Assembly: GCF_003790525.1 (NCBI RefSeq)
Contig: NZ_CP033635.1
Strand: one strand, 5' to 3'
From: Escherichia coli
Lineage (GTDB): Bacteria > Pseudomonadota > Gammaproteobacteria > Enterobacterales > Enterobacteriaceae
Length of the DNA: 64,000 nt
The stretch's first letter is position 1, and each line of letters opens with the position of its first letter. Shown here piece by piece: positions 47,201 to 50,200 of this stretch. The position numbers are program-made.

Positions 47201-50200
47201 ATTAACTTTATAATCAGTTTGCCAAAGGTAATTAACAGGACAGGGCTTATAATAATAATTAGCTTACTGTGTATTAATTTGATGTAATGCATGATGCAGA
47301 TGCTGAGAAAGCATCTGCATCTTTCGGTGGTGTTATTTGACCAGCTCAGGTGTTACCTGACTCACCGCGTTGGTGTAGTAAGGCGCACCCCAGCCCGGTT
47401 CCGGCCAGAATGCACCATAGCCGTAATCCCACAGGTTATAGGTGGTATTAACCACTTCTCTCAAATGCCACACCTGGATGCCCTGCATATTCACTTCGAG
47501 GAAGTTATACGGGACTTTATTGATAAAGCCAGGTTGTTCACCCTGAATGGTACCGAGGATGGTAACAAAGTGATTACGATAGTTCACTGGATCAAGGAAG
47601 CCGCTTTGTCTGGCGAGCAGTCGGCCCTGATAGTTGGCTTCAATATCAGGCTTCGCATAGCTATCCAACGGTAATACAGCGATTTCTAACAACGTATCCG
47701 TTTTGCCATTGATAACGTTGATAACCTTCCCACCAAAGCGCGCTTGTTGACCAACATATAACCCCGGCTGGTTATGAACAGCAACAAAACTTTTTTGAAT
47801 ATCAGGTTGGTTATTACCTTTGATATTTTGCGGAATTGAACTACATGCGGCAAGCAAAAATGAAAGGCTGAGGATGAGTGCACCTTTTGTCATGTTCATG
47901 TTACTATCCTTATCAACAAATATTAAAACCATAATAGATATTTCTTTATAGTTTTCATCTGATTCTGAGGCGATATGCCTGATAGTAACGTAAACCTGTC
48001 TGATGTTTATATCCCTTCTGTTTAGTTTAATTCTGTTAATTTTGTGGCGTGACATGAGTATCCATCGCCCCATAAAATAGCCTTTTTTTAAAGGTGCATA
48101 AAATCTATTTTTATTCAATGCTTATAAAGCGCTAATGTTCAATATTATGGGATTATATTCTGGTAATGATTTGATAAGCGAATTCTTTTGCCAATTGGTG
48201 TTTCTATTTCTACCCCATAATTTATAGTTTTTTCATCAGGTAGCGATCTCTTTAAATAAGGTGCGTATGACATTTTTTTAGGATGAAACGTATCGTGTTG
48301 AAATATTTCGAATTGATATTCAGACATTTGTGCCCATTTTTTAATTCTATTGTATCGAGAGGGTGTTGTAAAATCTTTAACTTGCTTGTAACATTCTTTT
48401 TGGAATTCTTGCTGATATTTTATTATGTCGTTGTATGAAAGATTGTTTACCCTGGTTTCTAATAATTCTATTATTGTCGAAGCAATTTCCGCTTTTGCTC
48501 TTAAAGAGTTGTCATTAATGGTTAATAATGTTGAAAATAAACCATTGATTTGTTTGTCAACATATTGTTCATCTTTATGTAATTTTGTGATGGGGTTTTC
48601 CTTATGTGAAAAAATAGTATCAAATAAATTTGCGTCAGTGAAGTTTACATTAAGTAGATCTTCGAAATAAAACCTTGACAAGGTTAGAACGAACCCGGAC
48701 AGGTCCTGTCCTGTCATATTGAAATCAATAAAGTTGGTTCCAGCAAAGACTTTCATCCTGTTTTCATTTTCACTGTGCTCAATATACAACCTTGTCATTT
48801 TTTGGTACAAGCGTTGAATATCTTTTATATCAGTTGGTAAATCAGTTCGTAGCCCAGAAAAATTTTTATTTTCGGAAGAAACGGTTTGGACACTGAATCT
48901 TACTGGTATTCCCTCTTCTACGAGAATTTTAGTTATGATTGGCTTATTGGGCTTAGGATTAAAGACAACAATGATTTTAGATTCAGAGTTTTTATTCTTT
49001 TCGTATCTAATGTTATTAATCTGATTAAGTATTGATTGTGTCTGTTGCGTAAGTGGTGTCGAACTTATCGTTTCAATGTTATTAATAAGTTTTACAAGTT
49101 GAGCCACAACTTTTGAGTAGTCTGCATTTGTATATGTGGTGTTCGTGTGGCACGCATTAATTTGTTGGAGTTGTTGTTGCGCTAAATCAAATTGTTCAGC
49201 GTTATATCCTTCTTCAGACAATGAAAAATTAATGGGTTGCTGTTCTTCCTGATTATCACAAGGCCACATCGGTGTGTCTGGTGTTTTAACATTGTCGGTA
49301 TCTGTTGTGCGGTTATAAATATCGCCGTGATATGTATTTATCATACCTGGGGTAAAGTCAATTGACATAACATTCCTTATTGTTCATCTATTTCGCTAAA
49401 TTTTTGTAAATCGGAGAATTAGAGCAGGAATGGATTTTCTTCTACGCGGAAATAAACACAATGCGTCATATCTTCCTGATATAATTACCTTTAACTTCCC
49501 TTTCATTTCCACCCGATAATATTTGTGTATAAAAAAAGGGCAGTGATAGTATCGTAAAGGAAAACATTAACAACTATCAAAAAGCGCTCATTTTAAGAAG
49601 TTATGATGTTCTCCGATAGTGTGTGAAGTGATATTTTTGTGATGTTTTAGATGTGTAATAATGAACCAGGTTAAAGTGTATTTAAAAATGTGTTGTATTG
49701 GCGACTGAAATCTACCCTTTAAAAGGGGGATGATACTGAGACAAAGAGACATTGCTTCTCCGATAAAATGTCAGAGAAGCATGATTGCGTGGTGATTGTC
49801 GATTGATGACTTACTGACGGATCCGTCATCATTCTCAAAGCATTAGTTAAGTTATTTGTTATTTTTAAGGATTATCCTATCTATGATTTTCTACTCAGAA
49901 GGATAAGGCACTCACAATACTCCTTATAGTTTACTGCTGGCATCTATTTAAAATAGCATTTGAGTCAAATAGCCCATCAAGATAGCCATACCTAATATAA
50001 CCGTCAGGAATGCAACTATCATCGGTATTCTGAACATTGATTTAAGTAATATCACTTCCGTCAGGCTTGCGCCGGCACTGCCGATGATTAATGCCATTAA
50101 TGCTCCCAGACCCATTCCTTTTGTCATCAAAACAGATGCCAGAGGGATAACTGCCTCTGCCCGGATATATAGCGGAATACCAACAACGGCGCTCAATGGG

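Follow-up and report, generated by a model that had tools for sequence, protein, structure and literature searches.

The stretch of Escherichia coli DNA analyzed here (64,000 nucleotides of contig NZ_CP033635.1, assembly GCF_003790525.1; below, the window) contains an intact copy of yhiS, a gene that is split by an insertion sequence (IS) in K-12. With a probability of roughly 0.6, our analysis argues that yhiS is an accessory gene found only in Escherichia and silent under normal conditions, whose soluble product is modular, combining a conserved core with variable cassettes; the mechanism suggested below for this protein is less probable than the description itself. The gene is under purifying selection, and yet it is among the most divergent coding stretches in a neighborhood that is 98-99% conserved.

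The first-pass annotation, made from the window sequence alone, had described an unbroken open reading frame (ORF) of 407 aa between slp and the arsenic-type module, and had identified it as yhiS. Both statements are confirmed; the frame has 407 codons and lies on the minus strand between slp (47333..47899) and the ars genes. The ORF is identical to the coding sequence (CDS) annotated by RefSeq in E. coli SMS-3-5 as a hypothetical protein, and the window is 100% identical to the SMS-3-5 chromosome at 47900-49950, with one base differing across the 12 kb compared. Neither the ORF list nor the RefSeq annotation contains an IS in or adjoining this frame. As was also noted earlier, the region is AT-rich (GC content 0.31-0.35 across 47750-49999 vs. 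about 0.50 in the flanks), and the protein is rich in Asn, Thr and Gln (9.3%, 8.6% and 6.9%, respectively; Ile, 9.3%) and has no hydrophobic N-terminus. The chance probability of a 407-codon open frame at the local composition is about 3e-14, the other five frames carrying 17-48 stops. The annotated ATG start is supported by the N-terminal residues Met1, Ser2, Ile3, Phe5, Thr6 and Pro7, since they are invariant in 91 alleles.

For the comparison with K-12 its derivative XL1-Blue was used. At the position between slp and arsC it contains two yhiS fragments, both annotated as hypothetical proteins, that flank a 1195-bp IS5 bordered by a CTAA target duplication; in K-12 the fragments, split by IS5 insH, are named yhiS-1 and yhiS-2. 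In silico removal of IS5 and one CTAA yields a 407-aa ORF with the start and stop as in the window, and its product aligns with the window YhiS without gaps (325 of 407 residues identical, 80%; both frames stop at codon 408). The position between slp and the ars operon and the orientation, same as that of slp, were found in several annotated strains, including SMS-3-5, XL1-Blue, HS and an O157-type strain. A frameshift hidden relative to homologues, which the first-pass annotation had allowed for, is not present, as the 91 full-length alleles are colinear. Given the shared locus, equal length after IS5 removal and colinearity, the window ORF is the intact orthologue of K-12 yhiS, from which it differs in being uninterrupted, in belonging to another allele class, and in having upstream a permease gene paired with a gene for an ArsR/SmtB regulator, as its immediate neighbor, while K-12 has no such pair.

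In the literature, K-12 yhiS (b3504, P37635) is an uncharacterized pseudogene disrupted by an insertion element (PMC8170033; PMC11677980), and the O157 orthologue Z4907 is an "unknown gene" at the border of the acid fitness island (PMC9729726). Our search of the literature on yhiS, Z4907 and ECs4376 found no functional study. The window copy is an ordinary, catalogued copy of an annotated, uncharacterized gene.

Comparison of alleles points to yhiS being a real coding gene under purifying selection, at least historically. The most distant allele (P0115, 410 aa, 64% identical to the window protein) sits at the same chromosomal position. In the strain that carries it (locus L010), slp, dctR, chuS and chuA are 98-99% identical to those of the window, with the number of synonymous substitutions per synonymous site (dS) at 0.02-0.08, whereas yhiS has 78% nucleotide identity, dS of 0.60 and the non-synonymous equivalent (dN) of 0.195, that is, a dN/dS ratio (omega) of 0.32. 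The 101 synonymous differences in 244 sites against 167 non-synonymous differences in 974 sites deviate strongly from equal rates (Fisher p 1e-14). When 268 random substitutions with the observed spectrum were simulated, the frame acquired 11.2 stops on average and stayed open in none of 5000 replicates; at the K-12 level of divergence, 0.14% of frames stayed open. Neutral drift would have closed the frame.

The other allele classes have dN of 0.08-0.13, dS of 0.15-0.34 and omega of 0.4-0.55. For the neighboring genes the respective values are dN of 0 and dS of 0.03-0.05 (slp), and omega of about 0.09 (dctR) and about 0.07 (arsC). In 4,087 of 5,414 genomes yhiS is 80-90% identical to the window copy, while slp-dctR is 95-100% identical in all of them. 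The differences are unevenly distributed along the protein. Almost no variation is seen in the N-terminal 20 residues, the central residues of the repeats described below, residues 281-300 and the last 27 residues, while residues from about 121 to 180 and from 301 to 380 are the most variable, the local dN there approaching dS. The C-terminal segment (codons 381-407) is kept even in the 64% allele class.

The alleles of yhiS are mosaics of a few deep classes. In three segments allele P0009 matches the window allele at 97-100% identity, while in alignment columns 125-210 its identity is 71% to the window allele and 96% to the K-12-like class; class switches of this kind also occur in P0024 and P0100. 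The four-gamete test is failed by 15% of informative site pairs, and dS between a given pair of alleles varies more than 10-fold along the gene. The 64% class consists of E. coli and of isolates labeled "Escherichia sp." (HH41S, MOD1-EC5287), which suggests that the deepest lineage is common to, or imported from, non-coli Escherichia. Hyperdivergent allele classes at otherwise conserved E. coli loci are found, for example, in fliC, the rfb region, and hsdS of the immigration control region. Like these, yhiS stays in one place between conserved flanks while its allele classes are deep and mosaic within the gene; unlike them, with their products being surface antigens or specificity subunits and the selective agents known, YhiS is predicted to be soluble.

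Of 5,426 complete E. coli genomes, 5,414 contain yhiS DNA, in every case on the chromosome, and 3,992 have a full-length match. The types of lesions were surveyed in 40 complete genomes picked at even spacing, a small sample from a database biased to clinical and laboratory strains. Matches of 1224 nt to the 1224-nt query occur in 15 genomes, of 1223 nt in nine, and of 1226 nt and 1222 nt in two each; three genomes have the K-12-type IS5 split and one an IS1 insertion, seven retain only an N-terminal remnant (about 32% of the gene), and one only the first 25% of the query. Eight of nine translated 1224-nt copies are intact, and the ninth has a nonsense codon at 345. In the 1223-nt class, to which HS and the O157-type strain belong, one base is lost in the poly-A tract at codon 363 (A8 in the K-12-type allele, A7 in HS, CCCC-A6 in the O157-type one); the frame then stops at codon 372 (L004, L005), and the resulting 371-aa product lacks the most conserved, C-terminal segment. 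A 1-bp deletion at nt 761 is common to the 1222-nt and 1226-nt classes, whose frame ends near codon 282. Hence at least six independent kinds of lesions (IS5, IS1, the poly-A frameshift, the nt-761 deletion, the codon-345 nonsense mutation and large deletions) recur across strains.

The intact 407-codon gene appears to be kept in roughly one third of complete genomes. The first-pass annotation had proposed that strains like this one offer a functional copy for study. The copy is indeed intact here, and the selection described above favors its being functional, this evidence being of an evolutionary kind; the strain, however, is not special, given the 15 full-length matches in the sample of 40. 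K-12, HS and O157 are poor models for yhiS, and the right background for a first functional study would be SMS-3-5 or another strain whose allele has 407 codons.

Two observations concern the annotation and the remnants. The gene in NZ_CP183129.1 (L003, 2601-3824) is marked by the Prokaryotic Genome Annotation Pipeline (PGAP) as "frameshifted", with the CDS cut to 2708..3824, while its translation has 407 intact codons. The PGAP reference for yhiS seems to be the 371-aa poly-A-frameshift form; hence, neither a RefSeq pseudogene flag on yhiS nor its absence can be relied on. In NZ_CP124326.1 (L008, locus 3514-4935) about 380 bp of the 5' end of yhiS are left; in this remnant lineage, represented by the seven sampled genomes mentioned above, arsR and arsB are also gone and arsC adjoins dinQ/gorA.

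Profile searches indicate that YhiS contains a short pentapeptide-repeat module of ten consecutive pentads. Their centers (F F M L L F L F L F) follow at a strict five-residue spacing, most of them being 97-100% conserved in the 91 alleles, and six of the ten pentads have Asn or Asp in position i-1. The domain search proposed in the first-pass annotation gave only this match: PF00805 scores 12.2 bits (E 0.14) on the window protein and does not reach the Pfam gathering cut-off of 20.2 bits. It is the only Pfam family matching most alleles (15 of 16, best E 0.037, all below the cut-off). Two further searches agree with it. The YhiS profile retrieves long proteins that match only at positions of about 204-277, several times each (E down to 2e-8), and all ten of those checked are strong pentapeptide-repeat proteins (PF00805 E from 1e-36 to 1e-91); the profile search of PDB sequences yields Rfr32 (2f3l, E 0.006), TL15 (3n90) and QnrB1 (2xtw, E 2.3), all at residues 203-256. 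In addition, a public source labels exactly this protein "YjbI with pentapeptide repeats". The module, though sub-threshold in Pfam, is thus backed by three profile searches. The linker motifs on either side of the repeats resemble the inter-module linkers of multi-module pentapeptide proteins, and longer alignments to two pentapeptide proteins (P0162, P0174) were discarded, as they reflect similarity of the repeat and linker only.

A run of ten pentads could form about 2.5 turns of a quadrilateral, right-handed beta-helix. With typical pentapeptide proteins (PF00805/COG1357 "YjbI") YhiS shares the A(D/N)LXX-like pentads with Leu, Phe or Met in the center, whereas its repeats, scoring below the Pfam cut-off and with a putative fold, take up about 50 of 407 residues. 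In the DNA mimics of the Qnr/MfpA type a long beta-helix (tens of pentads, about eight or more coils) makes up most of the protein, and ten pentads in 407 residues are far too few for YhiS to be one of them. The remaining 85% of YhiS has no relatives detectable with Pfam, NCBIfam, PADLOC, PHROGs or the profile search.

Structure prediction, also proposed earlier, did not yield usable models: the mean predicted local distance difference test (pLDDT) score of AlphaFold2 was 37.5 with the 16-allele alignment and 33.7 with the 91-allele one, the repeat region being of low confidence as well. Both low-confidence models agree in the absence of secondary structure before residue 40-57 or so, followed by helices (57-119), three strands (130-164), more helices (181-210), the repeats, a further set of helices (267-360) and a hairpin at the C-terminus. 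No transmembrane segment and no hydrophobic leader were found in YhiS (maximum Kyte-Doolittle 19-residue mean 0.92). YhiS would then be a soluble protein of about 47 kDa, lacking a signal peptide and transmembrane segments. It would probably begin with a conserved N-terminus for which no structure is predicted, followed by a Gln/Asn-rich helical segment, a variable beta segment, the ten pentapeptide repeats, a helical domain that is again variable and, at the C-terminus, a highly conserved hairpin.

The distribution of homologues suggests that yhiS is restricted to Escherichia. An exhaustive HMMER profile search of 1.84 billion (1.84e9) representative proteins retrieved a single full-length cluster, from E. 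coli, and its fragments, and no full-length relative from outside Escherichia; the named relatives are all from E. coli, Shigella or Escherichia sp. No match was found with tblastn in 50,697 phage records or among NCBIfam models, and the best hits in PADLOC (E 0.23) and PHROG (E 0.51) are noise. A scan of GTDB species representatives with two narrow peptide patterns, which divergent Escherichia orthologues may escape, gave only one contaminant contig. This contig (L009, NZ_SRXN01000179.1, "Ensifer sp. MPMI2T"; 409 bp, 0.77x coverage, C-terminus of YhiS 77% identical) is almost certainly E. coli contamination of the "Ensifer" assembly. Plasmid carriage was rejected, as the three PLSDB matches (NZ_CP134663.1, NZ_CP141089.1, NZ_OL790696.1) are chromosomes of 4.8-4.9 Mb filed as plasmids.

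The gene probably has its own promoter in the AT-rich region of about 310 bp upstream, since a terminator-like hairpin (49781-49753) follows the upstream permease gene. In 47850-50000 there are 15 promoter-like sites against 9.9 +/- 3.3 expected. yhiS has the same direction as slp-dctR, the interval between yhiS and slp showed no terminator-like site, and there may be read-through from yhiS into slp. The K-12 intergenic regions arsC/yhiS and insH/slp are called "promoter islands" in the section of a paper that deals with H-NS complex formation (PMC3661553), and K-12 yhiS is among the high-affinity StpA sites in AT-rich, H-NS-associated DNA (bioRxiv 10.64898/2026.02.10.705075). Overexpression of YdeO in K-12 induces slp-dctR and does not induce yhiS (PMC4222967); neither was a GAD box found near yhiS, and its membership in the acid regulon was rejected on these two grounds.

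Taken together, yhiS can be described as a non-essential gene on an AT-rich, foreign-looking segment at the edge of the acid fitness island. It is probably kept silent as a rule by H-NS/StpA, and likely has a promoter of its own, so that its transcription would not depend on the YdeO/GadE acid regulon, which drives the adjacent slp-dctR. As for the mechanism, YhiS may act as a protein-binding adaptor, in which the short beta-helix and the conserved C-terminus would form a constant core, and the variable beta and helical segments would set the partner specificity. A variable partner could then explain the survival of old allele classes, their reshuffling by recombination and the frequent loss of the gene.

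Several observations weigh against this reading. Omega of 0.3-0.55 is high, and the loss in about two thirds of the sampled genomes fits a gene of marginal value. In arsC dS is also high (0.2-0.29) with low omega, and some of the divergence may have come in with whole imported segments that were already divergent, instead of arising by selection on yhiS itself; such segments on the ars side do contribute to the pattern, and the trait specific for yhiS is the high amino-acid divergence. The pentapeptide assignment is below the curated threshold of Pfam, the predicted beta-helix and domain layout are unsupported by AlphaFold2, and the adaptor with a variable partner is suggested by the evolutionary pattern. 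Finally, neither the deletion strain nor the ASKA clone of K-12, where the gene is broken, showed an effect on the minimum inhibitory concentration of chlorhexidine (PMC8170033).

Alternatively, yhiS could be an effectively functionless relic of an old horizontal acquisition, silenced by H-NS and drifting to loss, and the window copy would be one not yet hit. The recurrent lesions, the one third of intact copies, omega several-fold above that of the neighbors, the lack of a homologue of known function in Pfam, NCBIfam, PADLOC, PHROGs and the profile search, and the association of the K-12 region with H-NS/StpA all agree with this, as does the fact that K-12, HS, O157 and the deletion lineage live without intact yhiS. 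We nevertheless consider it unlikely. A relic is not expected to keep its frame open across 22% nucleotide divergence, which no simulated copy did (mean of 11 stops), or even across that from K-12 (0.14% of copies); omega is below 1 (p = 1e-14), and all classes have nearly the same residues in the N-terminal 20 positions, the pentad centers and the C-terminal 27 positions. It is plausible that decay describes only the recent history of some lineages, not the history of the gene.

Two further readings, for which the mosaic alleles and repeated loss also speak, involve other organisms. YhiS would be either a fast-evolving, effector-like protein secreted by some type III secretion system (T3SS), for example that of the locus of enterocyte effacement or E. 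coli type III secretion system 2 (ETT2), diversified by the host and decaying with the defunct system, or a component of inter-microbial conflict (single-gene anti-phage defense, an anti-defense decoy or a competition factor) under frequency-dependent selection. The former seems very improbable, though short pentapeptide runs do occur in otherwise unrelated T3SS effectors of Enterobacteriaceae: EspY3 has runs of 8 and 9, PipB2 about 30 repeats (PMC6313403), and NleL a beta-helix domain (PMC3013003). Like such effectors (EspY3, EspX, PipB/PipB2, NleL/SopA), to whose repeats its module would be analogous, YhiS carries a short run in an otherwise unrelated protein, is encoded by AT-rich DNA and has no Sec signal; in addition, yhiS is H-NS-associated, and the conserved N-terminus of YhiS has no predicted structure. 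However, there is no similarity beyond the generic repeat (the EspX and EspY sequences not having been compared directly), no NCBIfam match and no WEx5F motif, and PipB2, NleL and SopA are absent from the PDB profile matches at E <= 10. The gene lies on the chromosomal backbone, with no T3SS locus or prophage adjoining it in the window and no copies in phages, and most E. coli carrying it, including this environmental strain, are not known to have an active T3SS. A role in conflict is hardly more probable. It would fit the very deep allelic lineages at one locus with normal flanks, alleles reshuffled like cassettes and frequent loss, and some pentapeptide proteins (the Qnr/MfpA class) are decoys or inhibitors of DNA enzymes, QnrB1 being a weak match in PDB. 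Against it stand the lack of PADLOC and PHROG matches, the fixed position in 99.8% of genomes instead of a variable defense island, the number of pentads, far too small for a mimic of that type, and the absence of a conserved partner gene nearby, as the permease/ArsR pair varies among strains.

The silenced accessory gene with a modular product remains the reading that we prefer. A further and rather improbable reading would make YhiS a polymorphic specificity component of an Escherichia-specific interaction system, either secreted (T3SS/ETT2-type) or cytoplasmic, with cassettes tracking a target in a host, phage or competitor, and with allele classes that predate E. coli itself, are maintained by balancing selection and occur in cryptic Escherichia clades as well. 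The mere presence of intact yhiS is of little consequence, since it is a hypothetical protein in thousands of genomes and the K-12 pseudogene is a textbook annotation. The present analysis adds a sharper description of an uncharacterized gene, which is a genuine Escherichia-restricted orphan with a short pentapeptide module. Together with the purifying selection, the divergence, the mosaic alleles and the repeated independent inactivation, this marks it as a candidate for a conflict-driven or niche-dependent function, and as a reasonable, although low-priority, target of functional work.

Table 1. Features of yhiS and its upstream region in the window
Feature	Coordinates	Strand	Basis
yhiS CDS, 407 codons and stop, intact	48145..49368	-	ORF list, RefSeq WP_000020632.1, K-12 alignment
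Shine-Dalgarno sequence AAGGA, 5 nt upstream of ATG (49368)	49374..49378	-	direct sequence reading
Codons 1-20, conserved N-terminus, no secondary structure in either low-confidence AlphaFold2 model	49309..49368	-	mean column entropy 0.18, among the lowest in the protein
Putative pentapeptide-repeat module, ten consecutive pentads, residues 206-255	48604..48753	-	register, conservation, profile matches
Equivalent of the K-12 IS5 site, about codon 248, inside the repeat module; ATAA here, CTAA in K-12	48622..48625		junction sequences, blastn breakpoints
A7 tract, codons 363-366; in other allele classes an A8 tract here loses one base	48273..48279	-	allele alignment
Codons 381-407, most conserved segment, predicted beta-hairpin and tail	48148..48228	-	entropy 0.06-0.25
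AT-rich upstream region common to K-12, probable promoter region	49369..49677	-	K-12 homology to about 49677
Sigma-70-like candidate promoter TTGATA-18-TACGAT	49580..49551	-	predicted

In the surroundings of yhiS, no Rfam match was found in 47000-51500 at E <= 1. The only match to the GAD box consensus TTAGGATTTTGTTATTTAAA in the window at no more than three mismatches is a perfect one (20/20) at 25171-25190 on the plus strand, presumably at a promoter of the acid fitness island.

On the other side of yhiS, the ars genes at 51396-52700 (arsC-arsB) are unusually divergent: the SMS-3-5 sequence is 90-95% identical to 4,813 records, and for the window arsC dS is about 0.28 and omega about 0.07. 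The tract of high divergence therefore passes yhiS on the ars side, and it ends before slp.

The permease gene and the divergent gene of the ArsR/SmtB-family regulator occupy approximately 49678-51395, between yhiS and arsC. This pair is present in SMS-3-5, L003, L006 and L007 and absent in K-12, HS and the O157-type strain, where arsC directly follows yhiS; it resembles an additional accessory module of the ars type, polymorphic in its presence among strains. Within the permease gene (49948..50949, minus strand), at 50291-50294, the window has AACAAAG and RefSeq NC_010498.1 has AACAAAAG, a difference of one base. This difference in an A-run splits the 333-aa "permease" (WP_000100281.1) into ORFs of 224 and 114 aa in the window, and could stem from differing sequence versions, from a homopolymer error or from a real variant.

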